A stretch of DNA of 64,000 nt from Thermovenabulum sp. (GCF_049701175.1 NZ_JBNATW010000009.1:9904-73903), one strand, 5' to 3'. Positions 21,620-41,579 are shown, numbered from the stretch's first letter. Notes: generated by a model from the sequence alone, not told the origin. A program made the numbers and translations.

Positions 21620-21649
21620 GTAAAAAAGAGGACCATTTTTGGTCCTCTT
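21620..21649 (-). terminator. rho-independent terminator of the RND/TetR operon
   Basis: AAGAGGACC-attttt-GGTCCTCTT hairpin starting at the TetR stop codon, followed by a T-run on the minus strand. Confidence 0.7.
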
Positions 21650-22235
21650 ATATTTTATCATATCCGCGTAAGAAGATATTAACGATCTTTTCCGAAACTT
21701 CCTCTATATCAAATTCTCTATTGTGGAACACCTTTTCCTGAATCACAGAAATCATCATCCCGAAAAAGCAATAGGCAGCAAGATTTATATCATTGACGTT
21801 TTGTGGGGTTTTCTCCGTGTTTTCAGCAATTATTTTCGAAATAAGGCTTATCACTTTGGTTTTTCTATCGTATATCCATTTCATCGTATTTTCATCAACT
21901 ATACTGCGGTGGCTCGCTATCATCCTTAACACATGACCGTGCTTTTCCATAAAAGAAAAACTGAATTTAACAATCACTTTCAATATCTCTTTAAGATCGG
22001 AATAACCTTTTATTTCATTTTTGATACCATTTAAATAAAAATTCATTCCTTCCTTTATCACCTGTCGGAAAAGGTGTTTTTTACTCTTAAAATACTGGTA
22101 AATAGTGCCCTTGCCTATTCCAGCTTTTTCTGCAATATCCTGCATTTTCGTATTTGGATAACCTTTATTTGAAAATATCGAAGCAGCAGCCTCAAGTATC
22201 GAGGAACGCTTTTCTTCCTGTTTCTCACCTCTCAA
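21648..22235 (-). CDS. TetR/AcrR-family transcriptional regulator
   Basis: TetR HTH (ILEAAASIFSNKGYPNTKMQDIAEKAGIGKGTIYQYFKSK); last gene of the efflux operon. Confidence 0.85.
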   Translation of the reverse strand: MRGEKQEEKRSSILEAAASIFSNKGYPNTKMQDIAEKAGIGKGTIYQYFKSKKHLFRQVIKEGMNFYLNGIKNEIKGYSDLKEILKVIVKFSFSFMEKHGHVLRMIASHRSIVDENTMKWIYDRKTKVISLISKIIAENTEKTPQNVNDINLAAYCFFGMMISVIQEKVFHNREFDIEEVSEKIVNIFLRGYDKI

Positions 22236-22262
22236 AGAATTTCACCCCTGAAAAATGTAATC

Positions 22263-23462: not shown

Positions 23463-23464
23463 TT

Positions 23465-26602: not shown

Positions 26603-26626
26603 GATTTCACCCCACTTGCTAAATCT

Positions 26627-27874
26627 TCATTGAATTTTCACGGTAGAACCTTCCATCAGCATGTTTTGCCCGCTTATCACAACCATTTCGCCTTCATTAA
26701 GGCCTTCCGTTATTTCAACTCTGTCTCCGTTTGTTACTCCGATCTTGACAAGCCGTTCTTCTGCTTTGCCTTCCTTTACAACATATACCACATTGCCATG
26801 TTTTTTAATCAGCACAGCATCCTTTGGAACCGTAATCACATTTTCCTTTATGCCCCTGACGACATTCACACTTGCAAACATGCCGGGCTTTAAGGTGTGA
26901 TCTTTGTTTTCCATCTCGATTTTTACCTTAAAAAGCCTGCTTGAACCCGATGCCGGCGAAATAATGCTTATTTTCCCCTTTATTTTACCTTCATCCCCAA
27001 GGGCATCTATATTCACTGTTGTTTCCTGCCCATCTTTTATTTTATTAATATCCTCTTCAGGCACATCTATAACTACTTTAACTTTATCTATATTAACTAT
27101 TAAACCAAGCGCCGCTCCTGCCTGGCACATTTCCCCGGGATTTATTTGCTTTGATGAAATCATGCCCGATATAGGCGCCCTTATCACCGAATTCTTTATA
27201 TTTGTTTTTATAAGCTCCACCTGAGCCTGTGCCTGAGCAACCTGTGCTCTCAGTGCTTCAATATTTTTGGGCAGGCGCTCTTCGGTCAGCCTCAATTGTT
27301 CTTTTGCGCTTTCATACTGGCTTTTTGCCACTTTATACTTCAGTTCCATGCTGTCGAATGCCTGCTTAGAAATTGCATCCGCCTCATACAGCGCCTTCAT
27401 GCGCTCATAATCAGCCTTGACGTTTAAATAGTTTGCCTCGGCCTGCTCAAAAGCAGACTTTGCCTGCTCAAGCTGCTGAGGCAGCGTCCCCGATTCATTG
27501 GCAGCAAGGTTTGCTTTTGCCGACGCTAAAGCAGCCTCCGCCTGGGAAAGCTGGTCGTACAGTTCATCTGTCTCAAGTATTACGAGAGGCTCTCCTTCTT
27601 TTACGTAATCACCCACTTCAAAATTTACTTCTTTTACCTTTCCTGAAATTTTGCTTACAATTTTGACCTCAACGCCTGCCTCAATCTGGCCCGTAAAAGT
27701 CGCTATGTCTTCTATTTTATCCTTTTTTGTTTTCATCACTTTTACCGGCACTGCTGTATCATTTTTTGCTTCTTCTTTCTTTTTTGAACATCCAGCAAGA
27801 AGGAATATTGACGCCACAAAGAAAATTAGCAATAGCGGAGCTATTATGTTGGTGTTTTTTCTGCAAAACTTCAT
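26627..27874 (-). CDS. efflux RND periplasmic adaptor (membrane fusion protein, HlyD/AcrA family), lipoprotein
   Basis: Lipobox LLAGC, coiled-coil hairpin, beta-barrel C-terminus. I prefer the ATG at 27874 (MKFCRK...) after GGGGTG. Confidence 0.85.
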   Translation of the reverse strand: MKFCRKNTNIIAPLLLIFFVASIFLLAGCSKKKEEAKNDTAVPVKVMKTKKDKIEDIATFTGQIEAGVEVKIVSKISGKVKEVNFEVGDYVKEGEPLVILETDELYDQLSQAEAALASAKANLAANESGTLPQQLEQAKSAFEQAEANYLNVKADYERMKALYEADAISKQAFDSMELKYKVAKSQYESAKEQLRLTEERLPKNIEALRAQVAQAQAQVELIKTNIKNSVIRAPISGMISSKQINPGEMCQAGAALGLIVNIDKVKVVIDVPEEDINKIKDGQETTVNIDALGDEGKIKGKISIISPASGSSRLFKVKIEMENKDHTLKPGMFASVNVVRGIKENVITVPKDAVLIKKHGNVVYVVKEGKAEERLVKIGVTNGDRVEITEGLNEGEMVVISGQNMLMEGSTVKIQ

Positions 27875-27939
27875 AAAATGCACCCCTTTTACTTTTATGT
27901 AATTGTTATTTTTAATTGTTTTTTAGTCATAACAGAACC

Positions 27940-27951
27940 GACCGTTCGGTC
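27940..27951. promoter_or_regulatory. palindrome GACCG-TT-CGGTC overlapping a putative -35/spacer (candidate TetR operator of the RND operon)
   Basis: The minus strand reads TTGACCGAACGGTCGGTTCTGTTATGAC, about 60 nt upstream of the adaptor gene. Confidence 0.4.
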
Positions 27952-28021
27952 AATTTGCCTTTTAAAAAAATATCCCCCCTTTGATTGCTCAAATAATAAA
28001 TCGTTTGCTGCAAAAATCAGA

Positions 28022-28044
28022 CCGAGGTAGCATATCACCCTCGG
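28022..28044 (-). terminator. short GC hairpin with a weak T-tract in the RND operon leader (possible attenuator)
   Basis: CCGAGG-gtgatatgcta-CCTCGG followed by TCTGATTTTTG on the minus strand. Confidence 0.3.
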
Positions 28045-28067
28045 CTTCCCTTATTTTTATTTAAATC

Positions 28068-28094
28068 CTACGGGAGGGAAATAATAAAAAACAT
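28068..28094 (-). other. 8-codon mini-ORF (MFFIISLP-stop) with a good RBS in the RND operon leader
   Basis: AAGGAG, 6 nt, then ATG TTT TTT ATT ATT TCC CTC CCG TAG. It lies between the upstream promoter/operator and the hairpin at 28022-28044. Confidence 0.3.
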
Positions 28095-28108
28095 ACTATA
28101 CTCCTTAT

Positions 28109-28128
28109 GTAAGTGAGTGCTTACTTAC
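28109..28128. promoter_or_regulatory. operator-like palindrome GTAAGTGAGTGCTTACTTAC
   Basis: Arms GTAAGT/ACTTAC. The core AGTGAGTGCTTACT is a one-mismatch copy of the AGTGAGTGCTCACT motif found twice at 44.6 kb. It sits immediately downstream of the -10 at 28130-28135. Confidence 0.4.
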
Positions 28129-28129
28129 T

Positions 28130-28158
28130 ATAATAATAATTTAAAAGTCGCGTGTCAA
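28130..28158 (-). promoter_or_regulatory. putative distal sigma-A promoter of the RND operon leader
   Basis: Minus strand TTGACA, 17 nt, TATTAT. Confidence 0.4.
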
Positions 28159-28227
28159 TAAGCTATATTTATTTTTACCTCTTCTTCTATGCAAGTCAGA
28201 TAATATCTCATTCTTTTTTCCTATCAA

Positions 28228-28272
28228 TATGAAAACCTCTTACAGTAGTTTTTTACTCTACTATAAGAGGTT
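28228..28272 (-). terminator. terminator of the riboswitch-controlled ECF operon
   Basis: 13-bp stem (CCTCTTACAGTAG / CTACTATAAGAGG, one mismatch) with T-runs on both strands, just after the S-component stop. Confidence 0.7.
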
Positions 28273-28286
28273 TTTTGTAAAATCAT

Positions 28287-29006
28287 CTATTTAATGCTTT
28301 CCTCATAGTTTATAATCATTTTGTGTTTAAACCGATTTAATATTTTAATAAAGCCTGTGCCGAAAAGCAGGTAAAATGCCGCATTGCCTATGGCGTGAAA
28401 AGTATCAAACCAGAAACTTGCCGCACAGACGGCGATAAAACTCTGCCAGTTTAATGGTTTAACGAAGGTAGTCCACGACCACAAGTTTAAAATCCATCCA
28501 AAAAAATACCCCCATAAAAAGCAGAAAACAGCCATTCCCCATCTGCCTATGTGCGGGAAGAGACGTTTAACGATACCTGCGGATGAGCCAGCAAGACCCC
28601 AAGCAAACATCTGCCACGGTGTCCACGGCCCCTGCCCCAGAAAAAAGTTTGAAACCAAGGCTGCAGTGGAACCTGTCATAAAACCGGCGCTTGAGCCGAA
28701 GACATAACCGGAAGCGATTGCTATAAATGTAGTAGGCTGTATGTTGGGCAGGGCGGCAAAGGCAATCCGGCCTGCTGCGCCAACGGCTCCCAGCACCGCT
28801 ATTACGGCAATTTCTCTAGGAGAGGAAGCGTCCAGTTCAAAACCCAGGTACATCAAACCAACAGCAACGAGGATGATAATAGATGCTGCCAGCCCCCATT
28901 CCCGGGTGATGGAAGCCTTCCCCGACATGGCGACCACCAGAAACACCGGGATAATTGCAAAACCGAGCCAGAATAGAATTCTTGACAACAATTTTTTCAT
29001 AAGCAT
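28287..29006 (-). CDS. ECF-transporter substrate-capture (S) component candidate, corrinoid-related by context
   Basis: 239-aa small polytopic membrane protein rich in G/A/W/F; last gene after EcfT and EcfA-A'. It lacks the CbiM-type MHxxEG N-terminus. Confidence 0.55.
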   Translation of the reverse strand: MLMKKLLSRILFWLGFAIIPVFLVVAMSGKASITREWGLAASIIILVAVGLMYLGFELDASSPREIAVIAVLGAVGAAGRIAFAALPNIQPTTFIAIASGYVFGSSAGFMTGSTAALVSNFFLGQGPWTPWQMFAWGLAGSSAGIVKRLFPHIGRWGMAVFCFLWGYFFGWILNLWSWTTFVKPLNWQSFIAVCAASFWFDTFHAIGNAAFYLLFGTGFIKILNRFKHKMIINYEESIK

Positions 29007-30700
29007 CTTCCTTTTAACTTTCTTTCCCGCTTTCCAGACGACGCCGGTTTTAACACGGCCAGAGCTTCCTCCGGAGTTAGAATACCGTCAGCAAACCCCC
29101 GGCACATCCTGCCGATCTGGGTAGAATAAAAAATTGACTCTGATAGGACCTGATGTACCGGACCGTCACATATTACTCTGCCACAGAACATCATGATAAC
29201 TCTCGATGCGTATTCTGCTGCAAATTCCATATCGTGGGTAGTCAGCACAACACTTGCCCCCTGCCTGCAATATTCCACCAGCACTTTCCCCATTTCGATC
29301 TTCTGGCGATAGTCCAGCCCCCTGGTAGGTTCATCCAGCAGCAAAAGCTTTGGCCTCGTGACCATCACCGAAGCAAGGGCCACCTTCTGGCGTTCTCCAC
29401 AGCTCAAATCCCGTGGGTTTACATGTCGGAAATCCTGCAATGAAAGCTTATCCATTATTTCATCAACTACACCGTTCGGGCTGATACCGAAGTTTTTTAA
29501 AGTATATAATAATTCTTCTTCTACCGTATCATGAAACAGGTAATCGCTGGGATTCTGGGAAAGGTAACCCACACAGGAATTCCAGGCTCCCCGACTAATG
29601 CTGCTCCCCGGTTCCCTGCCCATCAACATAATCCGGCCGCGCCCTGGTTTTAACAGGCCTGCCATGGTTTTGAGGAGTGTGGATTTGCCTGCTCCGTTGG
29701 CTCCCAGCACGGCAACCAGCTCTCCGGCAAAAAATTGTAAATTTATATCCTGTAATGCTTCCCTGCCATCGGGATATGCAAACCATACTCTGTCCATGCG
29801 TAAGATCGGTTCTTCTTCTCGCACCACAACGGGATGCTTTAAATAAAAATCTCTCGAAGGAGGGCTAAAGTTTTCTCTTAGCATCCGCCGTCCTTCCTTT
29901 ACTGTGACGGGAATCGTATTAAAACCCGTTTTGGCGAAGAAGCGGGCAACAGGCGGGATAAAAGGGTTTTCACAATGCGCCGCCCGGCGTGCCACCTGCT
30001 CAGGCGTGCCCTCATACTTTATTCTTCCACCTTCCATAATCACAACTCTGTCGGCTAAATGAAAACATCTTTCCAGCCGCTGTTCGATTAAAATCACGGT
30101 CATGCCTATGTCTTCATTCAAACGTTTTACAAGATTGAAAAAATCCTCCGCCGCTACTGGGTCCAGTTGAGAAGTGGGCTCGTCAAGGATTAAAACCGAA
30201 GGCTGCATAGCAAGTACTGCAGCAAGGGCGAGTTTTTGTTTTTGACCGCCGGATAGTTTTACTGTAAATTCTTGCCTTAGCTCCGCAAGCCCCAAAAAAC
30301 TCATGACTTCGGCAATACGACGGGCCATCTCCTGCCGTGGAAGGCCCAGGTTTTCCAGACCAAACGCAATTTCGGCTTCCACGCTTGTCATAATCAGCTG
30401 TTTTTCCGGATCCTGGAAGACTATCCCCACCTCCCTGGCTATACTGCGTTGGTCAAGCTGCTTAATATCCTTGCCCCGAAAGAAAACGCTGCCACCTATG
30501 CGGCCACCATAAAAGCCGGGGATTAAGCCAGCGAGCACCCGAGCAAGAGAAGATTTTCCCGAACCAGAACCGCCAGCGATGAGCAAAAACTCCCCTTCTT
30601 CAATATTCATATTTACGTCTTTTAATGCAGGCCTCTGGCTGTCGGGGTAAAAATAAGTCAGATTTTTGATTTGATAAAGGGGCAATTGTGCCACCCCCAA
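28997..30700 (-). CDS. ECF transporter fused double ATPase (EcfA1-EcfA2)
   Basis: Two complete ABC cassettes (GGSGSGKSS...LSGGQKQ...ILDEPTS and GANGAGKST...LSCGERQ...LLDEPTR). Confidence 0.85.
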   Translation of the reverse strand: MGVAQLPLYQIKNLTYFYPDSQRPALKDVNMNIEEGEFLLIAGGSGSGKSSLARVLAGLIPGFYGGRIGGSVFFRGKDIKQLDQRSIAREVGIVFQDPEKQLIMTSVEAEIAFGLENLGLPRQEMARRIAEVMSFLGLAELRQEFTVKLSGGQKQKLALAAVLAMQPSVLILDEPTSQLDPVAAEDFFNLVKRLNEDIGMTVILIEQRLERCFHLADRVVIMEGGRIKYEGTPEQVARRAAHCENPFIPPVARFFAKTGFNTIPVTVKEGRRMLRENFSPPSRDFYLKHPVVVREEEPILRMDRVWFAYPDGREALQDINLQFFAGELVAVLGANGAGKSTLLKTMAGLLKPGRGRIMLMGREPGSSISRGAWNSCVGYLSQNPSDYLFHDTVEEELLYTLKNFGISPNGVVDEIMDKLSLQDFRHVNPRDLSCGERQKVALASVMVTRPKLLLLDEPTRGLDYRQKIEMGKVLVEYCRQGASVVLTTHDMEFAAEYASRVIMMFCGRVICDGPVHQVLSESIFYSTQIGRMCRGFADGILTPEEALAVLKPASSGKRERKLKGRCL

Positions 30701-31587
30701 CTCAACATTAATGGGAAGGATAACAGAAAAATTACGGTGAAAAAGAACACAATTCCCGTATACCCGTCAATAAGATAAGCGAGCCGCGGGTAAAAGCTGA
30801 ATGTGCCCAAGCCTTTGGCCCAACCGTATGTCGCCGCCCCCAGGGCGAGCAGGCTTGCGGTAAGGCAGACGCTATCTCTAAGCCTCCAGACATCACGGAC
30901 ATAGTGTGAACGTCTGCCGCTACCAAAGGCCCTCGCATACATGGCTTCTGCTGTTTCCTGGGAATCTTCCAGTGAAGTTAAAAGCAGTATTTTTATCAAC
31001 ACGGCGTATTTTCCCATTCTTTCTTTTAATGTTCCGGCATTAAAATTGATTCCTCTTGCCGCCTGTACTTCTCTGATACTATCCAGTCGAATTACCATGG
31101 CGGGATACATCCTGGCGGCGAGGGAAAGCACCAGTGCGGACTTGGAAGAAAAGCGAGACAGCAAATCCATTACCCGGTCGGGATGAATCATAAAATTGTA
31201 AAGACAAAAAATACTCATTATATCAAGAAGCCTTAATCCCATGTCCGCACCATAACAAACGGCCTCCAGTGAGACATCCAACTTCCCGAAAACCGGGATA
31301 TACGGTCCGTGCCATATAACGGTTTCGCCGGCGCGCACAGTAACCGCATTTACAATTATGATAACAAAAACTGCCCCCAGGCTTACTTTAAAAAAAGTTT
31401 TCCAGGCATCTATCCCGTCAACAGCTCTTATAGCCGTAACTGTTACCGCCAGCAGCCCCAGTAGGTAAAGCGGGTGGTTGAACATCAATGTCAGCACCAG
31501 CAAAACTGCAATATACATTAATGCCGACAGCGGATGAAGACTCTGCAGAAAGAGCCCTTTTTCTCTATAAAAAAAGCGGTCCAGCAT
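30658..31587 (-). CDS. ECF transporter transmembrane (T) component, CbiQ/EcfT family
   Basis: Polytopic protein with an EcfT-type coupling-helix region (ARMYPAMVIRLDSIREVQAARG). Confidence 0.75.
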   Translation of the reverse strand: MLDRFFYREKGLFLQSLHPLSALMYIAVLLVLTLMFNHPLYLLGLLAVTVTAIRAVDGIDAWKTFFKVSLGAVFVIIIVNAVTVRAGETVIWHGPYIPVFGKLDVSLEAVCYGADMGLRLLDIMSIFCLYNFMIHPDRVMDLLSRFSSKSALVLSLAARMYPAMVIRLDSIREVQAARGINFNAGTLKERMGKYAVLIKILLLTSLEDSQETAEAMYARAFGSGRRSHYVRDVWRLRDSVCLTASLLALGAATYGWAKGLGTFSFYPRLAYLIDGYTGIVFFFTVIFLLSFPLMLSWGWHNCPFIKSKI

Positions 31588-31602
31588 GATAATCTTCTCC
31601 TA

Positions 31603-32382
31603 TCAATTTTGTGGTGCATTCCCTTCCAGACTCTCCCAGGTGGGAGAGGGGGTATTGATGCTCTCGCTGTACCACCAGATTATTCTGTCGCCAGGTTTAA
31701 TCTTTTTCTCACTTGCGGCAGCCATTGGAACTTCATCGTTTACCTTGTACATCCATCCCGACATGCCTTTGTTTGCCTGTCCTGCTATACTTATAACAAA
31801 ACCAGCATACGTCGGGCTGGTGTTATATTCAATTCCGGTGGTATCCAGAGCGCCAAGCACCGTTAAACCCCACCTGTTGTTTTCTTTTACTGCTACGGTT
31901 GCGGGGCCGTATACTATTCTGCCTTCCTTTCCGATAATGGCAATTTCTACCCGACATTCCCCGCTCCCGGCGGATGTTGATTCTGTATCTTTTGTTGCAT
32001 CACCGCTATCAACAGCCGACTCTTTTTTTTCAGAAGCGGTACGAGGCGTATTTACCTCAGAGGAAACCGCAGCACTGCCCATGGGAGTATCCCCTCCACC
32101 GGCAGGCGCAGATTTAGCATTAGAAGTCTGTTTTATTTTTGTCTGTGATGACACATTGACATGCTTTGCCTCTTCAACAACCTTTTTTTCAACGGTTATA
32201 CTCCCCGGACCAGTGCTTGTTTCCTTCTTTATCGAACCATCCGAAAGCGTGCTTTTTTCAACCGTAGCAAGTAACTCTGTATTCCTGGTATGAAAAATTT
32301 TTTGAGTGTATATTACATGCCCCGTTATTATGACAAGCAATAGTGCTATAATAATTGAAAGCTTTACAGCTTGTTTTTTCAC
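31603..32382 (-). CDS. membrane-tethered DUF4430 (transcobalamin beta-domain-like) protein
   Basis: N-terminal TM anchor, S/T/A/G-rich linker, then CRVEIAIIGKEG...GQANKGMSGWMYKVN...GDRIIWWYSESINTPSPTWESL, the DUF4430 signature. Confidence 0.7.
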   Translation of the reverse strand: MKKQAVKLSIIIALLLVIITGHVIYTQKIFHTRNTELLATVEKSTLSDGSIKKETSTGPGSITVEKKVVEEAKHVNVSSQTKIKQTSNAKSAPAGGGDTPMGSAAVSSEVNTPRTASEKKESAVDSGDATKDTESTSAGSGECRVEIAIIGKEGRIVYGPATVAVKENNRWGLTVLGALDTTGIEYNTSPTYAGFVISIAGQANKGMSGWMYKVNDEVPMAAASEKKIKPGDRIIWWYSESINTPSPTWESLEGNAPQN

Positions 32383-32424
32383 TTATATCCCCCACTGTGC
32401 CAAAGTCTTAAAATAAATAGAAAT

Positions 32425-35400
32425 CTATTCGCCTCCCATAATCCGGTAAATTATAACTGCGGTTTCGGCCCTGCCGGCTGCAGCTTTAGGCCGGAATGTA
32501 CCATCTTCAAACCCCTTGAGCAACCCCCCGGCTACGGCGGCTGCTATACTTTCCTCGCTCCAGGACGAAATCAATTTTTTATCTTTAAAATCCGGCTTTT
32601 TCCCTGATGAGGCAAGCCCCAATGAACGGGCGAGGATGACCGCAATTTCTTCCCTCGTAATGGTGCTGTCGGGGCGGAATGTGCCATCTTCATAGCCGTT
32701 GACAATATTCCAGTCTGCAGCGATGTGTACTGCTCTTGCATACCATGCGTCTTCCTTTACGTCTTTGAATTGTCTTTTTCCGCCTGTCTTTGGCTCAAGG
32801 CCCAGCGCTTTGACCAGAAGGCAGACAAACTCGGCCCTGGTCACAGCACGGCCAGGCTCAAAGCGTGTTCCATCAACTCCTGTCACAATTCCGGCTCCGC
32901 CCAGAGCTTCAACAGCATCCATGGCCCATCCGAAAGATGCCTCGTTAACATCAGTAAATGACTTTTTTACCTCCTTTGCAAACACGGCAATTTCGGAGAA
33001 ATGTTCTAACTTGGCCAGAATAACACCTTTTTGCAAGTCCACCACAGCAGGGATAACCGCCCACCTGCCGCCTGCTTTATCGTACCAGGCAAGGGCCAGG
33101 TTTTCCGGTTTTACCAGGGGTGGAATGGCAATTCTTATGGCCACTGTTACAGGCACAGTAAAAGAGGTTCCATCCGGGCCAAATTCATAAATCCCCGATA
33201 AAGCTTTGTATCCGGCAGGAACTGCGCTCAAGCCTCTATTGCCAGCGATTTTCTCAGTCGATGGCAGACTGGTCTCTTTGATCGATATTACCTCATCCTT
33301 TTTCAATGCACCAGCCGGAATGATAAGGGCTATTTCCTCTTTGTTATCGACAATGATTGCCCCTGTTGAAGCGGTTACCTTCTTCTCCAGATCAACCGTA
33401 TTTTGAAGAAGCATTTCCTTTAAATTCAAAAATTCACTGCGTTTAAACGGTTCACGGTTTCCAACGATCACTACCGATTTGTTTATTTCTTCAAAGCCCG
33501 CCGCATCTTTCGTATTCGCTTTTATTTCAAGCAATTGGTCGATTTTTTCAAGTGCCTTCAGCGCTTCATCGGAAACCTGCAAAGCCTGCGGGAGTTTTTT
33601 ATTCTGTTCTACAAAGTTGGGAGAGATCGCGTCTTCCTGTTGCTGAATCACTTTTTTGTTTACCAGTTCTTCCCACGTGGGGCCTGTAGAATTTATGTCT
33701 GTACTGTACCACCAGATGATTTCATCACCGTCATTTATAGCAAATTTGGAGGCCAGGACAGAAGGTACCTTGCCGTTGACTTTATACATCCATCCATTCA
33801 TGCCACTGTTGGCCTGGCCTTCAATGCTCTTGACAAAGCCGTTATCATCAACATAATCAAGGCCAGTAGCGTCAAGGGCTCCCAGTGCTGTCAGCCCCCA
33901 TCTTCCATCTGCCATTACGGTGACTGAACGGGGGCCAAAAAGCAGCTCACCATCTTTGCCCACCACCGCGATATCTACGGTGCACCTAACCTGATTAGAA
34001 ACGGGCTGCGAAGATCCCATCGGTTCAACTTCCCCATCAATGAGAATAAATGCGCTTAGAGCTTCCGCAGCGTCAAGAATATTCCCCATTGCACCGAAAC
34101 TGCCATCGGAATTCAGTGCTTTCTGCATCATGTAGTCAACAGGAATGAAGCCCTGGCTGCTTTTCCAGTCTGCAGGGTCCATGCCCAATTTCTTTAACGT
34201 AACAATTACCTCGGCCGTATCCACCACCGGATCATCCGGATAGGGTTGTGTGGTATAGACGCTACCGTCGGGCTGCAATTGTTTTTTAAGATAAGCAAGC
34301 CCTTTTTCTACGGCATCCTGGACCTGCTTGTCTTCGGAAGCGTTGGGCAGGTATGTCAGTGCCCGAATAGCCTGGGCTGTTGACATAAAGTCGGGGAAAA
34401 ACACACCATCCCATACTTCTCCCCAGGCACCGGACGTATCTCCGGATGAGCTCTGCTTCCCCAGTATGTAGCTTCGCGCTTCAGCAGTATTTATTTCATT
34501 TATCTTTTCCGCTTCTCCCAGCGCGATATACGCCCACATGTCGCTGTAAACGCTGTTGTCAAAGCCTTTTGAAGAATGCCTTTCTTTTAAAAGATTTACA
34601 AGCCTGTTTACCCTGTCCGCATCCCCCCAGAGGTTTAAAACCAGTATTTGCTGGGCAATGGTCTTTGTCTTCGATCTTTTTACCCAGGCGGAATCGGCAC
34701 CGGCGTAATCATTATATGTCTTTCCCAGTGATTTCAGGGCTATGAGGGTTTCGGCCGTTGCAAAGGTGCTGTCCCACTGGGCTTTTATGGCCGCGGTCTC
34801 GGCGTCCTGGATGTCCTGCAGGTAAGTGAGGCCGCCCTGAATGGCATTATAGATATCGCTGCTGGTATCGCGAGCCGCGTCAAAATAACTGAGGGCCGTG
34901 AGCACCTGTGCCGTCAAGTCGGGCTCTTCAGGATAATAGCCGCCCCAGGCGACCCCTGCTTCATTACCCCAGCTATCCTTATGCGGGCGTCTAAATTTAT
35001 TTAGATAGTTAAAAGCCTGTTGCTGGTCTATCAGGTTGAGTTTACCTGCCTTGCCAAGGGCGGTCAGGACCATCACATTGTCATAAATGCTATTACCAAA
35101 ATAAATTGAATCGCCGTCAGTTTTCTTTTTTTCCGCAATAGCTTGGGCAAGAGTGTCAATATTATTAGATTTCGGGTCTACCGCTCTAAGGGCGATCAGC
35201 TCTTTTGCAAGGTAGACGGCATCGAGAACGGTGGCGTTACTCGCAGCAGCGTCAGCGGAGGTGATGACTATATCCTTTAGAGACTTCCCGCCGTATACCC
35301 ATTTGGACAGGTCTTCCCCTGCGTCGGATAGAGCTTCCACACAGCGGTAGTCGAAGCTCCACCCCTGCGCATCATAAGCCAGAGACCCTTTTAAATAACG

Positions 35401-35901
35401 ATCCTTGAAATATGTTACGGCTTTTGAAACACTATTCTGCACCTGATCTTTTACATTGCTATCGGTTATTTCATTCTTTACCATCGCCAGCGCCTGCAGA
35501 GGAGCTTTGGTTCCGTATTCGTTGGCGTAAGGTCCGAAACTGCCATCGGCGTTCTGTGTAGCCAGGATATATGTAATCAGGCTGTTATGATTGCCAAGGA
35601 GATCGGCAATTTTCTGAATTTCCTCCTTCAGACTTTCACCATTCCTGGACCATTTTTCCGACGAAAGATCTTCTCCAGCAAGGGTAAGGACGTATGCAGT
35701 GTAGCCGTCAATTTTTTCCCCGGCTTTGTATCTGTCGTTAATAAACTGCACAGCCTTATCAGCTAATTGCTTAGCGGTATAACTTTCAGTCTGCGTGGCA
35801 GCCTGAGCTGCAGTCAGAGCCCCTCCACCAATAGTGATGCTTAATAAAAGGCAAAATACCAGAATAATCGATACCGTACGCTTTTTGGTTTTATATAACA
35901 T
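32425..35901 (-). CDS. very large secreted SLH-anchored protein: alpha/alpha-toroid (prenyltransferase/terpene-cyclase-like repeats) + DUF4430 + linker + 3 SLH domains; candidate surface corrinoid-capture protein
   Basis: Signal peptide. Repeated QxxDGSF/G motifs (QNADGSFG, LQPDGSVY, LNSDGSFG). DUF4430 block at about 33660-33995 (CTVDIAVVGKDG...GQANSGMNGWMYKVN...GDEIIWWYSTDINSTGPTWEEL). Three C-terminal SLH repeats (FTDV..., FKDV..., FKDKK...). Confidence 0.7.
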   Translation of the reverse strand: MLYKTKKRTVSIILVFCLLLSITIGGGALTAAQAATQTESYTAKQLADKAVQFINDRYKAGEKIDGYTAYVLTLAGEDLSSEKWSRNGESLKEEIQKIADLLGNHNSLITYILATQNADGSFGPYANEYGTKAPLQALAMVKNEITDSNVKDQVQNSVSKAVTYFKDRYLKGSLAYDAQGWSFDYRCVEALSDAGEDLSKWVYGGKSLKDIVITSADAAASNATVLDAVYLAKELIALRAVDPKSNNIDTLAQAIAEKKKTDGDSIYFGNSIYDNVMVLTALGKAGKLNLIDQQQAFNYLNKFRRPHKDSWGNEAGVAWGGYYPEEPDLTAQVLTALSYFDAARDTSSDIYNAIQGGLTYLQDIQDAETAAIKAQWDSTFATAETLIALKSLGKTYNDYAGADSAWVKRSKTKTIAQQILVLNLWGDADRVNRLVNLLKERHSSKGFDNSVYSDMWAYIALGEAEKINEINTAEARSYILGKQSSSGDTSGAWGEVWDGVFFPDFMSTAQAIRALTYLPNASEDKQVQDAVEKGLAYLKKQLQPDGSVYTTQPYPDDPVVDTAEVIVTLKKLGMDPADWKSSQGFIPVDYMMQKALNSDGSFGAMGNILDAAEALSAFILIDGEVEPMGSSQPVSNQVRCTVDIAVVGKDGELLFGPRSVTVMADGRWGLTALGALDATGLDYVDDNGFVKSIEGQANSGMNGWMYKVNGKVPSVLASKFAINDGDEIIWWYSTDINSTGPTWEELVNKKVIQQQEDAISPNFVEQNKKLPQALQVSDEALKALEKIDQLLEIKANTKDAAGFEEINKSVVIVGNREPFKRSEFLNLKEMLLQNTVDLEKKVTASTGAIIVDNKEEIALIIPAGALKKDEVISIKETSLPSTEKIAGNRGLSAVPAGYKALSGIYEFGPDGTSFTVPVTVAIRIAIPPLVKPENLALAWYDKAGGRWAVIPAVVDLQKGVILAKLEHFSEIAVFAKEVKKSFTDVNEASFGWAMDAVEALGGAGIVTGVDGTRFEPGRAVTRAEFVCLLVKALGLEPKTGGKRQFKDVKEDAWYARAVHIAADWNIVNGYEDGTFRPDSTITREEIAVILARSLGLASSGKKPDFKDKKLISSWSEESIAAAVAGGLLKGFEDGTFRPKAAAGRAETAVIIYRIMGGE

Positions 35902-36050
35902 ATCTCAACCCACCTTCTCAGATTTAATTTTCTGCAATTATCAAAATTGATTTTAACTCCAGCATGCTAATATGCTGTTTTTCTTAAAACACCTCCCCTC
36001 CCCAGGGCTCCCCTCAGAGGTGGGTTGAAACAGACCCAATGATGAAATAA

Positions 36051-36084
36051 AATAAAAACCCTGGCTCCTTAAGATAAGCCAGGG
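36051..36084 (-). terminator. intrinsic terminator forming the expression platform of the cobalamin riboswitch
   Basis: CCCTGGCT-tatcttaagg-AGCCAGGG followed by TTTTTATTTTATTT on the minus strand. Confidence 0.65.
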
Positions 36085-36089
36085 GACAT

Positions 36090-36285
36090 AAGCCAGTGGT
36101 AAACTGTTCCCCATCCTGCGTAGGGAGCACCAGTTTGACAGCAGGCCTCAGGTCTCCTGGCTCGGATTCACTGCTCCCCCACGCCTTCCCAGGTTATTCC
36201 CAGTGGCATGATGTGGGGTCGCTCCTCCTCACAGTGGCGCGACCGCGCCGGATTTTCACCGGCTTCCCTTGTTACCTGCCCGAAT
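36090..36285 (-). promoter_or_regulatory. cobalamin (adenosylcobalamin-type) riboswitch aptamer
   Basis: The minus strand reads AAGGGAAGCCGGTGAAAATCCGGCGCGGTCGCGCCACTGT...GCCACTGGGAATAACCTGGGAAGGCG...AGCCAGGAGACCTG. That is the conserved GGGAA/GGTGAAAATCC core, GCCACTG, and the B12 box. Confidence 0.85.
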
Positions 36286-36300
36286 TATTCATTTGTACAT

Positions 36301-36329
36301 ATTATATTAATAATTCATAGAACCGTCAA
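36301..36329 (-). promoter_or_regulatory. consensus sigma-A promoter driving the riboswitch operon
   Basis: Minus strand TTGACG, 17 nt, TATAAT, about 15 nt upstream of the riboswitch. Confidence 0.6.
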
Positions 36330-36333
36330 TAAG

Positions 36334-37476
36334 TCATCGCTCACCACCAGCAATTCCTGCCTTTTCTTTGTTGCTTGTAGGAAGTAAAATTATAAATATG
36401 TTCAATAAAAACACAAAAACACTTATTAAGCCCAATCGCTTTATAGCCCATAGTATTTCCTCTTCAGATGACCCGAGCAACATTATATTCCGAAGGGGAA
36501 TTATAAAGGAATATAAAGGCCAAATCGCTGCAAATTTCTTTATAGGCTCCGGCATCATATGATAGGGCCATGTAAAACCCGAAGCGAGAAAAGTCGGCAT
36601 AGATAAATAAGCTGTAATCTGAACAGAAAAAAGCGGGTTTTTAGTTAAAATCCCCAGAAATGCACCTATATTGAGACATGAAGTTATAAACGCTGCCGAA
36701 AGTAGAGTTATATCAAATACCTTTTCCCTAACAGGAATTTTAAATAATTTATTGACTGCTAAAATACAAACCAAAAACACAAATATTAATATGGCTAAAT
36801 ATATAAACATTCTTGTTATATAAATTTCCATTAGCTTTTTGCCGTTTTTTTCTTGAGAAGCGTCAACAGCAATTGTCCTCGCCATATTTAGAACAGATAT
36901 TTCTAGAAATATTGCTCCTATTAGGCCGGGAATCAGAAAATAGCTGTAGTTATATGCAGGATTCCCGAGAACCCTTGTGGTAAAGCCAAGAGGCATTGCT
37001 AAATTCTTGCTGTATTCGGGCGGATAACCTAAGGACTCAATCTTTTTTATAAGAATTCCCACTCCCAGGCTTTGAAGTATTTCGGAGGCTCTGGTTAAGG
37101 CATTGTTTCCAACAATCAGGTTGTTTTCGTTACATATAACAAGAACTCTCGTATCCTCGCCTTTTTTTACTTTAGAAGAAAATTCCGGAGGGAATACTAA
37201 AGCCATTCTCACACTGCCCTGCTGTATCAAATTTTTAAGCTCAACCTCATCCTTAGGGAAATACCTTATATCGTATTTTTCATTATTCTCAAAGTAATTT
37301 ATGATCATTCTGCTCAATGAAGAATTATCAAGGTCTAAAATCGCCGTAGGTATAGATTTTACTACACCAGGGCTGTAATACCAGGAAAAAAGCACGGTAA
37401 AAATTACGGGTGTTATAACAAGTGCTATCACAAGTAATTTATCTTTCTTCAGATTCATCAACTCTCTTTTAAGCAT
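36334..37476 (-). CDS. ABC-2 type transporter permease
   Basis: N-terminal TM, large extracytoplasmic loop, C-terminal 5-TM bundle (YhhJ/YbhS-like layout). Confidence 0.7.
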   Translation of the reverse strand: MLKRELMNLKKDKLLVIALVITPVIFTVLFSWYYSPGVVKSIPTAILDLDNSSLSRMIINYFENNEKYDIRYFPKDEVELKNLIQQGSVRMALVFPPEFSSKVKKGEDTRVLVICNENNLIVGNNALTRASEILQSLGVGILIKKIESLGYPPEYSKNLAMPLGFTTRVLGNPAYNYSYFLIPGLIGAIFLEISVLNMARTIAVDASQEKNGKKLMEIYITRMFIYLAILIFVFLVCILAVNKLFKIPVREKVFDITLLSAAFITSCLNIGAFLGILTKNPLFSVQITAYLSMPTFLASGFTWPYHMMPEPIKKFAAIWPLYSFIIPLRNIMLLGSSEEEILWAIKRLGLISVFVFLLNIFIILLPTSNKEKAGIAGGER

Positions 37477-38657
37477 TATTCAACCACCGCTTTCCTTTTT
37501 CTCCCAAAAAGAATAAGAGCTAAAAAGATAGCTGCAAAAACTGCAAAAAAATATATTAAAAGAGCGTTGAAGTTGTAAATATATACATCCTTATTTATTC
37601 CCGTCGCCATAATGCTTTTAACAGGATCAGCAAAATAGTATAAAGGTATTAGTTTTGCAAGTTTGCCTAATAAAGGAGGCATTGCAAGGGTTGGCCAGGT
37701 ATAACCGCAGTAAATAAGGGTAGGAAGCACTAAAAACATAGCCACTTCTGTTGAAGAAATCTGATCGCGGAAAATTATTGATGATATTACCCCAATAGCC
37801 GAGATAGTAAGAGTAAAAGGCAGGGATAAGACAGCAATACCTTTTACAGCTTCAATTTTCCCGAGCAAAAAGTATTTTATAGAAAGGAAATATGTTAGAT
37901 TTAAAAAGAATGCTCCTGTCATCGCATGAAAGACAAGTTTTCCCATAACAAATTGAAGCCTATCTAAAAAATTCATTTCTTTTGAAAAAACTTTGTATTT
38001 TGAGCCATTGATTGAAGTCGCTGCTCCGAGAACGATAGAAATCTGAAATAAAGAAGCTATTGCACCAGGCATTAAAAACTTGCCGTAATTTCTCGTTGGA
38101 TTATACCAAACCCTTTTTTCGAAGGGCAGGCCCAACACAAAATTTTTTGCCTTATCCGGCTGCACTCCTTTTGCCTCTAAATAATTTACCGCAATCCCGG
38201 CATTTACCGTCATCAAGATTTCAGCACTTTTTTCAAGGCAAATGCTTGAAATAGACATGTTTGTTCCGTTAACAATGATAAGAACCTTAGGCGACTTTTG
38301 ATTTTTTACATCCTTTTCAAGGCCTTCAGGTATAAAAACAACCACGTCCACTTTCCCGGATTTTATTAGACCTTCTAAATTTTTATCCTCATCAAGATAA
38401 TAATTCACTTTAAAAGTTTCATTGTTTTCAAAATACCATATTATCTTCCTGCTGAGAGAAGTGTTGTCCAAATCTACTACTGCTGTACTTACACCCTTTA
38501 CAACGCCGGGCAAATACATATAGCAGAGCACCAATGAAACCAGAGCTGGTATCAAAATAACCGCCAAAATATACTTTGGGTCTTTAAATATCCTTAAAAT
38601 CTCTTCCTTTAAGCTTTTTATAAAATAAATCAATTCGAATAACCCCCTGAAATCCAT
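37476..38657 (-). CDS. ABC-2 type transporter permease (paralog of the neighbour)
   Basis: Same architecture as 36334..37476, with shared motifs (DLDNSSLSR / DLDNTSLSR). Confidence 0.7.
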   Translation of the reverse strand: MDFRGLFELIYFIKSLKEEILRIFKDPKYILAVILIPALVSLVLCYMYLPGVVKGVSTAVVDLDNTSLSRKIIWYFENNETFKVNYYLDEDKNLEGLIKSGKVDVVVFIPEGLEKDVKNQKSPKVLIIVNGTNMSISSICLEKSAEILMTVNAGIAVNYLEAKGVQPDKAKNFVLGLPFEKRVWYNPTRNYGKFLMPGAIASLFQISIVLGAATSINGSKYKVFSKEMNFLDRLQFVMGKLVFHAMTGAFFLNLTYFLSIKYFLLGKIEAVKGIAVLSLPFTLTISAIGVISSIIFRDQISSTEVAMFLVLPTLIYCGYTWPTLAMPPLLGKLAKLIPLYYFADPVKSIMATGINKDVYIYNFNALLIYFFAVFAAIFLALILFGRKRKAVVE

Positions 38658-39685
38658 TAAAATCTCACAAAGGCTGTCATCCCCGGCCTCATTAATTCTC
38701 TGCCTTCCAATAATTCAACCTTCACCTCAAAGGTCATTATATCCTGTGACCCGTTATCATTGGTTGCTCTTTTTACAGCAAAATCAGGATTTTCGCTTAT
38801 CCTTTTCACTTTACCTCTAAAAGACTTGTCAGGATAAGCCATCACCTTTATCACAACTTCCTGACCGACCTTCACCTTGGATAAATCTTTTTCACTGACA
38901 TTAACCTTTATCCAAACATCATCAAGGTTTGTTACAGTAGCTATGGGCATCCCTGTAGAAACAAGTTCACCTTCGTCGCAATAAATCTCCGTTACTGTAC
39001 CATTTATTGGTGACAATACCTTTGTGTCTTTAAGATAGCTGTCTACTTCCTGAATCCCTGCAAGTGCCTGCTGATATTTGTCTTTCGCAGCTTCATAAGC
39101 GGCCTTTGCCTGCTCTACAACCGCCTGAGCCGCCTCTATATCTTCCTTGCGCGCCCCTTCTTTTGCCATATCGAGCTTTTGCTTTGCTATGTTCATTTGT
39201 GTTAAGGCTTCATCCAATTTCTGTGCAGGCACTGCTCCATGCTCATAGAGGTCTTTAACCCTTTCATAAGTTTTTACGGTGAGTTCATAATAATCCTCTG
39301 CTTCCTGAATTTCCTGACGCCTTGCACCGTTTTTTGCCTTTTCAAGGGTTGCCTCTGCTGCTTTTAAAGCAGCATAAGCCATATCCACCTGTCCTCTTGC
39401 AGCTTCTGCTAAAGCTTTCGCCTGCTCCCTTTTTGCCTTTAATTCATTGCTTTCGATCTCTGCAATGACCTGCCCTGCATTTACTTTTTGACCCTCTTCA
39501 ACATAGATCTTAGAAATCTTCCCCGGTATTTTTGTGTTAATGTCAACCTCTTTTGCCTCTATTATTCCCCTCACTTCACTGCCCTGCTCTCCCATTACAT
39601 TCGCACTGCTTTTTGCTGTGCATCCTTGAAGAAAAAGTGAAGTAACTATGATTGCTATTGGCAATATTATCCATTTTTTTCTCAT
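38657..39685 (-). CDS. HlyD-family secretion/adaptor lipoprotein
   Basis: Lipobox LQGC, biotinyl-lipoyl-like domain, long coiled coil, beta-barrel C-terminus. Confidence 0.8.
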   Translation of the reverse strand: MRKKWIILPIAIIVTSLFLQGCTAKSSANVMGEQGSEVRGIIEAKEVDINTKIPGKISKIYVEEGQKVNAGQVIAEIESNELKAKREQAKALAEAARGQVDMAYAALKAAEATLEKAKNGARRQEIQEAEDYYELTVKTYERVKDLYEHGAVPAQKLDEALTQMNIAKQKLDMAKEGARKEDIEAAQAVVEQAKAAYEAAKDKYQQALAGIQEVDSYLKDTKVLSPINGTVTEIYCDEGELVSTGMPIATVTNLDDVWIKVNVSEKDLSKVKVGQEVVIKVMAYPDKSFRGKVKRISENPDFAVKRATNDNGSQDIMTFEVKVELLEGRELMRPGMTAFVRF

Positions 39686-39709
39686 ATTCCCTACTTCCTC
39701 CCCACCGTA

Positions 39710-41089
39710 CTAATTTAAAGGCCTGCCTATTGCATTATCGTAATTAGCTTTTGCCAGATTGAAGCTGTAAACTATTTCTACTACTTTTTCTTCCACATCC
39801 GTAAGCCTTTCCTGGGCCGCTAATACCTCTACTATTGTTCCGGACACATCTTCTAAGTCCATAGTTTTTAAATTTTTTGTGGGATAAGGATAGCCTTTTT
39901 GGTACTTGTATTCTGCTATTTTTAAAACTTCCTGGGCATTTTTTACGCAGTTTTCTATATAATCAAGCATATTCTGAGCGTACATAAGTGAATCATACGC
40001 ATTTCTAATATCACTTTCTACATCGAGAAGTGCCTTCTGGTAATTGTCCCAGGCTTTATTTGCCTGTAAAAGGGCTTCACGGTACTGAAAGGTGTTTTCA
40101 GGGTAAATCCTTTTTACTATGTCAAAGTTGAGTTTGTAGACCAAATATTCTCCTTTTGCTTTTCTTATTTCAAGCCTGTTTTCCAATCCCTCTTTTATCC
40201 CTTCCTCCAGATTTGGAAAGTATTTTTCTGTCGTAAAAACATCCTCCACCTCAATATCCTTTTCCAAAGGATATCCTATGCTCTTTTTAAGTTCCATTTT
40301 CGCCTTGCTTAAATCTATCTTTGCTTTTTCTAAATCAGCCTTCATTAAAGAGACCTGTGTTTTTGCAAGTAAGACATCATCCTTTGCCACCATCCCGGCA
40401 TTATACCCTGCTTGGGCAATGTCGAGCTGCCCTTGAGCCCTTTCTAATGCTTTTTGTTTCACTTCGAGGATTTTTTGGGCTTTCAACACATCATAGTACT
40501 CTTTTTCCACTAAAAGGGCTATCTGCCTTTCTGCAAGAGACCTTGCAGTTGTAGCCACATCCAAAGCTACCCCAGCTTTAATATTTATCAAATCCTGCGC
40601 AGATTTTACATTATTTAGACCTGCAATAATCTGATCAAGGGATTTGTCCAAAAGTTCCTCCCCTTTTTCCAAAAGGGTTTCCCCCTCTGTTATTGCAGAT
40701 TCTAATTGTTTTTTTATTCCTTCAAGATAAGCTTTTTTCTCGGGAGGCAGGTTTGGGTCTTCCAATGCTTTTTCTACCTCGGAAAGCTGTTTTTTCGCTT
40801 CTGAAAGCTGTTCTTTTCCTGCGCTAATACTGTCTTTCCCGCTTCCCAATTTTCTTGATAAAAAATCCGCTTTCTCATCCTGCAGTTTTGCCATATCGAG
40901 CTCATCCTGAACTAATCTGAGATTTATATTGTTTTTTAAAGCCATTTCTATGCACTTTGAGAGGTTTAATTTTTCAACCTTTTCATTTGGATTCTGTAAA
41001 GAAAAAGCTTGAGTTCTTATTCCTCCTATTGTAAAAGCTACCAAAACTAAAAATGTCAAAATCCTTCTAATTCGCTTTGCCATGTTCAT
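39710..41089 (-). CDS. TolC-family outer-membrane-efflux-protein-like protein
   Basis: Signal peptide and OEP repeats (LSKCIEMALKNNINLRL...). Confidence 0.7.
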   Translation of the reverse strand: MNMAKRIRRILTFLVLVAFTIGGIRTQAFSLQNPNEKVEKLNLSKCIEMALKNNINLRLVQDELDMAKLQDEKADFLSRKLGSGKDSISAGKEQLSEAKKQLSEVEKALEDPNLPPEKKAYLEGIKKQLESAITEGETLLEKGEELLDKSLDQIIAGLNNVKSAQDLINIKAGVALDVATTARSLAERQIALLVEKEYYDVLKAQKILEVKQKALERAQGQLDIAQAGYNAGMVAKDDVLLAKTQVSLMKADLEKAKIDLSKAKMELKKSIGYPLEKDIEVEDVFTTEKYFPNLEEGIKEGLENRLEIRKAKGEYLVYKLNFDIVKRIYPENTFQYREALLQANKAWDNYQKALLDVESDIRNAYDSLMYAQNMLDYIENCVKNAQEVLKIAEYKYQKGYPYPTKNLKTMDLEDVSGTIVEVLAAQERLTDVEEKVVEIVYSFNLAKANYDNAIGRPLN

Positions 41090-41096
41090 CGTTCAA

Positions 41097-41579
41097 TCAC
41101 CCGTTTTCAAATATTCTTTTTTCTATTTTTTTTAGTATCATTATCAAGTAATCTTTTTCCTCATTTTCAAGAGCAGAAATTATCCTCTGCCACTGCTCTT
41201 TGTATTCCGGGAAAATTACCCTAAAAAGCTCTTTCCCCTTTAAAGTAAGCTCTGCTCGGACTATCCTCCTATCCCTTTTATCGTATTTTCTTTCCACGAG
41301 ATTTTCTTTTTCCATCCTGTCTATGAGCTTTGTTATATTTGCTTTGCTAACCTTCATCCTTTCCCCAATCTGAGAAAGGCTTAGCCCTTCTTCTTTTTCC
41401 TTTCCCAAAATTAAAAGGACGTTAAATTTGCTTCTTGAAATCCCGTATTTCTTAAATATTTCGTCAAAGGAATCAACTATAACCCTGAAAAAATTGCTCA
41501 ATTCTACCAATAAATCATCTGAATTGTTCATTTTTTCTTCATAAGGTATTACGCCATCAAAAGCAAGGCTGTTATTCAT
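41097..41579 (-). CDS. MarR-family transcriptional regulator
   Basis: MarR winged HTH (LSLSQIGERMKVSKANITKLIDRMEKENLVERKYDKRDRR). Confidence 0.85.
   Translation of the reverse strand: MNNSLAFDGVIPYEEKMNNSDDLLVELSNFFRVIVDSFDEIFKKYGISRSKFNVLLILGKEKEEGLSLSQIGERMKVSKANITKLIDRMEKENLVERKYDKRDRRIVRAELTLKGKELFRVIFPEYKEQWQRIISALENEEKDYLIMILKKIEKRIFENG

Follow-up and report, generated by a model that had tools for sequence, protein, structure and literature searches.

Corrinoid capture outside the membrane is poorly known in Gram-positive bacteria, and a locus of Thermovenabulum sp. (GCF_049701175.1, NZ_JBNATW010000009.1:9904-73903) raises the question of whether a large cell-surface protein could carry it out. 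The window, that is, the whole stretch of 64,000 nucleotides that was analysed, encodes on its minus strand, at positions 32425-35901, a protein of 1158 residues that combines a toroid of α-helices, an SLBB/DUF4430 domain and three SLH repeats. A preliminary description made from the sequence alone had proposed that this protein is a bacterial, wall-anchored analogue of the eukaryotic B12 carriers. The proposal gains support from a cobalamin riboswitch upstream of the gene, from a CbrT-like S-component encoded in the same operon and from the top structural matches of the N-terminal head. The protein is probably the outermost part of a B12-repressed corrinoid-uptake system in a Gram-positive thermophile, ligand binding being predicted.

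Riboswitch and operon

The best evidence for a link to B12 comes from beyond the gene itself. The cobalamin riboswitch aptamer (RF00174) lies 226 nt upstream of the ATG of the gene (Table 1). The terminator-like hairpin that separates the aptamer from the start codon is likely the expression platform, acting by transcription attenuation. A same-strand cobalamin riboswitch is also present upstream of the homologous gene in all four of the related loci L001-L004. A wider scan limited to one genome per species yielded 37 further loci, all belonging to anaerobic, often thermophilic Bacillota, and the same-strand riboswitch was found in 33 of the 34 for which upstream DNA was available. In total, 37 of 38 related loci carry it; with the window included, the count rises to 38 of 39. 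Tandem cobalamin aptamers precede the homologous gene in L003 (7041-7705), L010, L011, L021, L030, L033 and L035, with a third aptamer on the opposite strand in L011. In a Syntrophomonadaceae contig (L039, 2086-2266), a 6S RNA gene lies directly upstream of the cobalamin riboswitch.

The gene is the first of a five-gene operon, with four genes downstream on the same strand. The second gene encodes a paralogue of 259 residues, the SLBB domain of which is 56% identical to that of the 1158-residue protein (E = 2e-40). The three others encode an energy-coupling factor (ECF) transporter, made of the transmembrane coupling subunit EcfT, a fused EcfA-A' double ATPase and an S-component. By phmmer, residues 66-229 of the S-component align with residues 12-175 of 6FNP_A, from ECF-CbrT of Lactobacillus delbrueckii, over 164 residues with an E-value of 1.3e-14; the PF12822 score of 28.7 bits is slightly under the cut-off. 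ECF-CbrT is an experimentally proven importer of cobalamin and cobinamide (PMC5997447).

The operon has the same gene order in Thermosediminibacter oceani, Neomoorella glycerini, Moorella thermoacetica and a metagenome, and in 26 of 31 related loci a downstream gene encodes a second SLBB protein. In Neomoorella glycerini (L002), the gene following that of the S-component encodes CbiZ. Some relatives have an additional, separate toroid protein of 465 residues (Prenyltrans and Cu_amine_oxidN1) encoded after the small SLBB gene; the entries for this extra toroid and for CbiZ are at 12699-14096 and 17531-18640 in L002 and at 12464-13861 in L003. The content of the operons varies from one to three barrels for two SLBB domains. 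On the plus strand of the window, an open reading frame of 235 codons (31586-32293) lies nearly entirely inside the small DUF4430 gene and is most likely a spurious antisense frame.

Resemblance of the head to B12 carriers

The reading frame at 32425-35901 is real and its translation is 1158 residues long. It starts with MLYKTKKR, followed by a hydrophobic stretch and by the site AQA/A, which together read as a signal peptide of the Sec type. The DUF4430 module was found where it had been placed (about 33660-33995), PF14478 matching residues 674-733 with 54.5 bits for a cut-off of 23.8 (E = 1.6e-14). Family statistics, given here and below for PF14478, PF13243, PF00432, ZU5 and PF01122, were obtained with Pfam on 40 family members; PF14478 is matched by all 40.

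The head was modelled with AlphaFold2 (AF2) from residue 35 to residue 760, with a predicted local distance difference test score (pLDDT) of 92 and a predicted template-modelling score (pTM) of 0.77. The model consists of about 24 helices over residues 43-620, followed by a β domain with strands at model positions 605-699 and a pLDDT of about 87-95. Compared with the PDB using Foldseek, the top matches of this model are human, rat and bovine transcobalamin together with haptocorrin (E = 4e-7 to 8e-6), 8 of the 10 best matches being transcobalamin or haptocorrin, and intrinsic factor is matched with an E-value of 2.5e-5. The carrier matches have a probability of 1.0 and extend over about 400 columns, covering both carrier domains end to end. 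The next matches are class II terpene cyclases, the β subunit of RabGGTase and an α2-macroglobulin-like thioester domain. As modelled, the head appears to agree with transcobalamin in its fold classes and in their order. A single-sequence phmmer search with residues 35-760 against PDB sequences gave no match.

Two nested α/α barrels

The preliminary description had guessed the toroid from four motifs, which were located at residues 116 (QNADGSFG), 484 (SSSGDTSGAWG), 542 (LQPDGSVY) and 596 (LNSDGSFG). The guess is borne out by the helices of the AF2 model, by the Foldseek matches, by profile matches to squalene-hopene cyclase and by the presence of PF13243 in 28 of the 40 family members; PF00432 is found in 11. 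Taken alone, the toroid region of the 1158-residue protein (residues 35-640) yields only noise and no family match with Pfam, and the squalene-cyclase family TIGR01787 of NCBIfam is matched below threshold (E = 1.9e-8, 33 bits for a cut-off of 322.7). When two family profiles were compared with PDB sequences, squalene-hopene cyclase was matched at E = 8e-12 and 7e-19, and RabGGTase β at E = 1.4e-8. These matches fall on residues 406-625.

The toroid region is about twice the length required for one barrel, and the preliminary description had left the choice between two barrels and a single elaborated one. It is made up of two barrels, of which one is nested within the other. In a BLAST map of 83 homologues, short natural variants splice residues 1 to about 100 straight onto residues about 410-620, followed by the SLBB domain, and two proteins (P0080 and P0081) have as sole barrel the equivalent of residues about 91-393, that is barrel II, again followed by the SLBB domain. 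Aligned with hhalign, residues 96-405 match the concatenation of residues 35-95 and 406-625 over 211 columns (probability 99.8, E = 4e-28), colinearly across the junction, with residues 35-95 colinear with residues 159-208 of barrel II. A simple tandem duplication, parsed as residues 35-340 and 341-625, gave only an E-value of 1.6e-12 over 104 columns. The nested arrangement is preferred because of this difference and because natural single-barrel variants of both kinds exist. A second hhalign match (probability 90) suggests that the inserted barrel II may be circularly permuted by one hairpin.

The short variants, such as that of Moorella thermoacetica (932 residues), were considered as possibly devoid of a toroid; this was rejected, as the BLAST map shows one barrel, made of residues 1 to about 100 and about 410-620. 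Of the 125 strong relatives retrieved from 1.84 billion representatives, only about 19 span the double barrel and most span residues about 410-750, the matched query positions being 375-715, so that a single barrel with an SLBB domain is the common core of the wider family. Two homologues of about 800 residues (P0068 and P0070) have a double barrel that nearly abuts the SLH repeats, without SLBB domain, stalk or ZU5 domain, and a toroid module can therefore exist without an SLBB domain in cis.

Stalk, MAIN domain and wall anchor

Residues 747-976 had been described as a spacer of about 200 residues. This description does not hold, as AF2 and Foldseek reveal a helical stalk and a ZU5/GAIN-like β-sandwich. 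In a second AF2 model, covering residues 745-985 (pLDDT 86, pTM 0.83), the stalk is short and is followed by the sandwich, for which the best PDB matches found with Foldseek are ankyrin ZU5 domains (E = 1e-6, template-modelling (TM) score 0.66-0.70, root-mean-square deviation (rmsd) of about 4 Å). Further matches are the ZU5 domains of UNC5b and ZO-1 and the GAIN domains of BAI3 (E = 5e-4), BAI2, CD97 and latrophilin. Pfam gives ZU5 with 20.8 bits for a cut-off of 21 (E = 4.7e-4) in the 1158-residue protein and finds it in 22 of the 40 family members; ZU5 is also matched by the family profiles run against PDB sequences.

The motif HFS, at residues 967-969, is located in the turn that joins the two final strands of the sandwich (fragment positions 216-223 and 226-232 in the model), and the SLH repeats come directly after this domain. 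Of 32 species-level loci, 27 retain HFS and one more has HFT; the motif is also conserved in 31-33 of 39 aligned homologues. The sandwich, with HFS in this turn, has the hallmark of MAIN (microbial GAIN) domains. In bacterial proteins, cleavage of MAIN domains between F and S of this motif was established by Edman degradation, and the two cleavage products remain stably associated (bioRxiv 10.64898/2026.05.12.724683). The MAIN domain of the 1158-residue protein probably cleaves itself at HF/S. The three SLH repeats, expected at about 32425-32980, were recovered by Pfam within these limits (PF00395, three stretches, E = 3.7e-34), and this region matches the SLH domain of Sap (6bt4) at E = 6e-30 when a family profile is compared with PDB sequences.

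Proposed function and alternatives

A sequence of events can be proposed. When intracellular cobalamin is low, the riboswitch would permit read-through of the terminator and the five genes would be expressed. The 1158-residue protein would be exported by the Sec machinery and fixed non-covalently to a cell-wall polymer by its three C-terminal SLH repeats, the stalk and the ZU5/MAIN domain holding out the N-terminal head with its two nested barrels and SLBB β-grasp domain. Barrel I and the SLBB domain would be the counterparts of the α and β domains of transcobalamin, with the corrinoid, either cobalamin or an incomplete or variant form such as cobinamide, sandwiched between them. The ligand would be handed inward to the membrane-tethered SLBB paralogue, possibly with the help of barrel II, and then to the CbrT-like S-component, for import by the dedicated EcfT/EcfA-A' module. 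If self-cleavage at HF/S takes place, the head would be tied to the SLH anchor by one β-strand only and could be shed. The protein most likely works like transcobalamin, with predicted binding of its ligand.

Several points weigh against this interpretation. The TM score of the head model to transcobalamin, normalised to the latter, is only 0.38-0.40 with an rmsd of 12-17 Å; the nested barrel breaks colinearity, and the pLDDT is about 32 in the linker between the barrel and the SLBB domain. Given the low TM score and the low-confidence linker, the model does not demonstrate a closed cleft like that of transcobalamin. The two family profiles run against PDB sequences never reach transcobalamin, intrinsic factor or haptocorrin, and PF01122 is found in just one of the 40 family members (E = 0.006) and not in the 1158-residue protein. 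Because the profiles and phmmer miss these carriers, membership of PF01122 at the sequence level is not claimed; on sequence grounds, the protein is classified in the DUF4430/SLBB clade and in the terpene-cyclase/prenyltransferase toroid superfamily, outside PF01122. The HFS motif is degenerate in 4 of 32 loci (L003, L021, L025 and L028, with RFT, RFA, RLL or RID), which presumably carry non-cleaving ZU5/MAIN variants. No ligand-binding or other biochemical work on any bacterial member was found in the literature searched. No need for extracytoplasmic binders is known for ECF transporters, which are textbook importers that function without a binding protein. CbrT on its own binds B12 with nM affinity (PMC5997447), and a homologous operon of Lactobacillus sakei was reported to take part in haem uptake (bioRxiv 10.1101/864751).

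This last report raises the possibility that the protein scavenges haem or another tetrapyrrole to feed the ECF transporter, as proposed for lsa1836-1840 of Lactobacillus sakei, an operon of homologous type for which haem-uptake phenotypes and docking were presented (bioRxiv 10.1101/864751). Such a ligand is hard to reconcile with the control of the operon by a cobalamin riboswitch, which is found at the 1158-residue protein gene and in 37 of 38 relatives; in addition, the S-component gives an alignment with CbrT, one relative has a neighbouring CbiZ gene, and Pfam reveals no haem-related gene within the operon, so that a role in haem uptake appears very unlikely. The sequence of the barrels, for which the nearest matches are squalene-hopene cyclase (E = 7e-19) and RabGGTase β (E = 1.4e-8), evokes instead an extracellular enzyme of the cell envelope, either terpenoid cyclase/prenyltransferase-like or glycan-active, with the DUF4430 domain as an accessory, and the relatives do bear the database name 'prenyltransferase/squalene oxidase repeat-containing protein'. 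However, a motif scan found no DxDD, DDxxD or thioester (CGEQ) motif anywhere in the 1158-residue protein, and identities as a cyclase, a prenyltransferase or a thioester domain were rejected for want of these motifs. The protein is moreover secreted and wall-anchored, far from isoprenoid diphosphate substrates, and riboswitch control and an operon with ECF-CbrT are unconnected with such chemistry; an enzymatic function is extremely improbable.

Two other possibilities are variations on corrinoid capture. The main alternative concerning the ligand keeps the same architecture: rather than complete cobalamin, the protein could physiologically take up a corrinoid that is incomplete or variant (cobinamide, cobyrinic acid a,c-diamide or pseudo-B12) and salvaged for remodelling, a proposal that can be entertained tentatively. 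The cbrUVT genes are labelled 'cobyrinate diamide uptake' in comparative genomics (PMC8123684), cobinamide is transported by ECF-CbrT besides cobalamin (PMC5997447), and in Neomoorella glycerini the operon is followed by CbiZ, of the cobinamide amidohydrolase family. The operon also occurs in B12 producers such as Moorella thermoacetica, and haptocorrin, a broad corrinoid binder, matches the head structurally as well as transcobalamin does. No sequence feature tells corrinoids apart, and this proposal refines the transcobalamin-like function rather than contradicting it. More doubtful is a releasable two-site catcher, in which the cleaved head, shed under force or upon ligand binding, would be recaptured as a 'corrinophore', while barrel II and the SLBB paralogue would form a second site in trans, the whole acting as a bucket-brigade that spans the thick Gram-positive wall to the ECF transporter. 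If true, it would serve a class of transporters thought to work without an extracytoplasmic binding protein.

With its transcobalamin-like head, its control by a B12 riboswitch and its pairing with a CbrT transporter, the toroid-SLBB family is the obvious candidate for an extracellular capture step preceding ECF import. The locus provides well-delimited constructs, namely the head (residues 35-746), the MAIN domain with HFS, and the small SLBB paralogue.

Genomic neighbourhood

The features of the operon are listed in Table 1. From the riboswitch to the S-component (28287-36333), the GC content is 0.45-0.49 and that of the third codon positions (GC3) about 0.49-0.50, the small DUF4430/SLBB gene having a GC3 of 0.40; the flanking efflux genes have a GC content of 0.35-0.45 and the intergenic region 27884-28286 one of 0.30. 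The B12 operon has different neighbourhoods in relatives. Since its GC content exceeds that of the flanks and its surroundings differ among relatives, lateral acquisition from a Bacillota lineage of higher GC content is suggested.

Efflux-type operons flank the B12 operon on both sides (21648-27883 and 36334-41579). In one, a TetR-like regulator is encoded with a TolC-like protein, an AcrB-like RND pump and a membrane-fusion protein; the second has a MarR-like regulator together with a TolC-like protein, an HlyD-like protein and two ABC-2 permeases. The gene at 41704-44466 (minus strand) encodes a protein of 920 residues with a signal peptide and N-terminal SLH repeats (E = 2e-24), in which Pfam recognises nothing else. 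This protein, probably that of the S-layer or another one bound to the wall, shows that SLH anchoring is in use in the organism. Two T-box leaders are found on the minus strand, at 56081-56392 (119.9 bits) and 59275-59488 (97.9 bits), the latter preceding the methionyl-tRNA synthetase gene (57275-59200).

Table 1. Coordinates in the window of the operon features and of the parts of the 1158-residue protein
Feature	Position	Strand	Basis
Promoter-like site TTGACG-17-TATAAT, upstream of the riboswitch	36301..36329	-	Consensus scan, 11/12 matches; pattern match only
Cobalamin riboswitch aptamer RF00174	36127..36292	-	100.8 bits (gathering score 31.5), E 4.8e-24; match to the full model, 1-189 of 189
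Terminator-like hairpin and T-run, between aptamer and start codon	36049..36084	-	9-bp stem, 6 GC pairs, then TTTTTATTTT
1158-residue surface protein: signal peptide, nested double α/α barrel, SLBB/DUF4430, helical stalk, ZU5/MAIN, 3 x SLH	32425..35901	-	
Signal peptide, residues 1-34 (KTKKR, hydrophobic core, AQA/A)	35800..35901	-	Read from sequence
Barrel I, N-terminal part, residues 35-95, first three helices	35617..35799	-	BLAST map, hhalign
Barrel II, residues 96-405, paralogous barrel of 12 helices, inserted in barrel I behind its third helix	34687..35616	-	
Barrel I, C-terminal part, residues 406-625, nine helices, directly N-terminal to SLBB	34027..34686	-	
SLBB/DUF4430 domain, residues 639-746	33664..33987	-	PF14478, AF2, Foldseek
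Helical stalk, residues 747-835	33397..33663	-	Helices at positions 19-46 and 77-88 of the AF2 fragment model
ZU5/GAIN-B-like (MAIN) β-sandwich, residues 837-976	32974..33393	-	Pfam, AF2, Foldseek
HFS motif, residues 967-969, predicted autoproteolytic site HF/S	32995..33003	-	
Three SLH repeats, residues ~981-1158, non-covalent cell-wall anchor	32428..32961	-	Pfam SLH
SLBB paralogue of 259 residues: N-terminal membrane anchor, ~115-residue low-complexity linker, SLBB/DUF4430 domain	31603..32382	-	PF14478, E 1.6e-16
EcfT (CbiQ-family) transmembrane coupling subunit	30658..31587	-	PF02361, 49.1 bits (cut-off 25); conserved in L001-L004
Fused EcfA-A' double ATPase	28997..30700	-	Two ABC_tran domains, E 3.8e-63; TIGR04520 and TIGR04521 above cut-offs
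ECF S-component, CbrT homologue (vitamin B12/cobinamide)	28287..29006	-	phmmer, 6FNP_A

Comparison with known systems

The SLBB superfamily and its transcobalamin-like clade were defined by Burroughs, Balaji, Iyer & Aravind in 2007 (Biol Direct 2:4; PMC1796856), who described bacterial surface proteins with fused toroid and SLBB domains, among them examples from Desulfotomaculum (gi 88945170) and Moorella (gi 83590303). They noted a second SLBB paralogue and CbiO/CbiQ genes in the operon, predicted the scavenging of B12 or its precursors, and proposed that animals acquired transcobalamin from Gram-positive bacteria of low GC content (PMC1796856). The 1158-residue protein belongs to this group, with which it shares the signal peptide, the toroid-SLBB fusion, the surface tethering, the paralogous SLBB protein and the CbiO/CbiQ-like genes. 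As it was predicted from genomes in 2007, the B12-carrier idea of the preliminary description is a rediscovery; the concept of a bacterial transcobalamin-like catcher, already in the literature (PMC1796856), is unchanged, and the toroid-SLBB family is also a candidate bacterial ancestor of the animal B12 carriers, as proposed then. For this member, the additions are riboswitch control, which is near-universal, an S-component of the CbrT type, the nesting of the two barrels, and a ZU5/MAIN domain carrying HFS ahead of the SLH anchor; none of these, nor the SLH anchoring itself, is mentioned in the 2007 paper.

Transcobalamin, intrinsic factor and haptocorrin (2BB5, 2PMV, 4KKI) share with the 1158-residue protein an extracellular location and the order of a toroid followed by a β-grasp domain. 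They are the best structural matches of the head model (E = 4e-7 to 3e-5), and their C-terminal domain is of the same family, ECOD placing domain 3 of 4kki under DUF4430. The identity is about 15%, with no sequence-level match and a TM score of about 0.39, and the bacterial protein differs by its additional inserted barrel and its wall anchoring by MAIN and SLH. Whereas the eukaryotic carriers deliver their ligand to an endocytic receptor, delivery to an ECF transporter is predicted here.

The present system has a homologous S-component, an ECF importer and a B12-related context in common both with ECF-CbrT of Lactobacillus delbrueckii (6FNP; Santos et al. 2018) and with the cbrTUV group of ECF transporters. 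Here, the ECF module is dedicated and encoded in the operon, with fused ATPases, and is accompanied by two extracytoplasmic SLBB proteins, which are not described for the Lactobacillus delbrueckii system. The Lsa1836-1840 proteins of Lactobacillus sakei (bioRxiv 10.1101/864751) likewise comprise ECF S, A-A' and T components and secreted proteins resembling the α (toroid) and β (DUF4430) parts of transcobalamin. These parts are separate in Lactobacillus sakei but fused and wall-anchored in Thermovenabulum, and while haem uptake was assigned to the former operon by the authors, the latter has a cobalamin riboswitch.

Autopeptidases of the ZU5 superfamily were already noted in bacterial surface proteins in 2012 (Zhang et al. 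2012). MAIN proteins, of which YfkN of Bacillus subtilis is an example (Brogan & Rudner, bioRxiv 2026), share with the 1158-residue protein the β-sandwich, the position of HFS before the last strand and the domain order, that is, signal peptide, cargo, MAIN domain and a wall anchor consisting of a sortase motif or SLH repeats (bioRxiv 10.64898/2026.05.12.724683). Their cargo is an enzyme, an adhesin or a toxin, whereas that of the 1158-residue protein is a predicted vitamin-binding module, a type of cargo on which the main text of the preprint is silent. In its supplementary tables, the domains fused to MAIN include DUF4430 (236 cases) and Prenyltrans (220 cases), with architectures such as Prenyltrans-DUF4430-ZU5-SLH (bioRxiv 10.64898/2026.05.12.724683).

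The class II terpene cyclases, such as squalene-hopene cyclase and the βγ didomain cyclases, also contain two barrels, one of which is inserted close to the N-terminal end of the second (γ in β), and their repeats are similar in sequence to those of the head; Foldseek alignments extend over about 590 columns, with a TM score of only about 0.34. The insertion occurs after one helix in the cyclases and after three in the 1158-residue protein, which lacks DxDD and is secreted, whereas the cyclases are membrane-associated or cytoplasmic. A functional analogue is provided by BtuG and BtuH of Bacteroides, surface lipoproteins controlled by B12 riboswitches that catch corrinoids with high affinity and hand them over to a membrane transporter. 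These differ by their β-propeller fold, their lipid anchor, their location on the Gram-negative outer membrane and their partner, the TonB-dependent BtuB.

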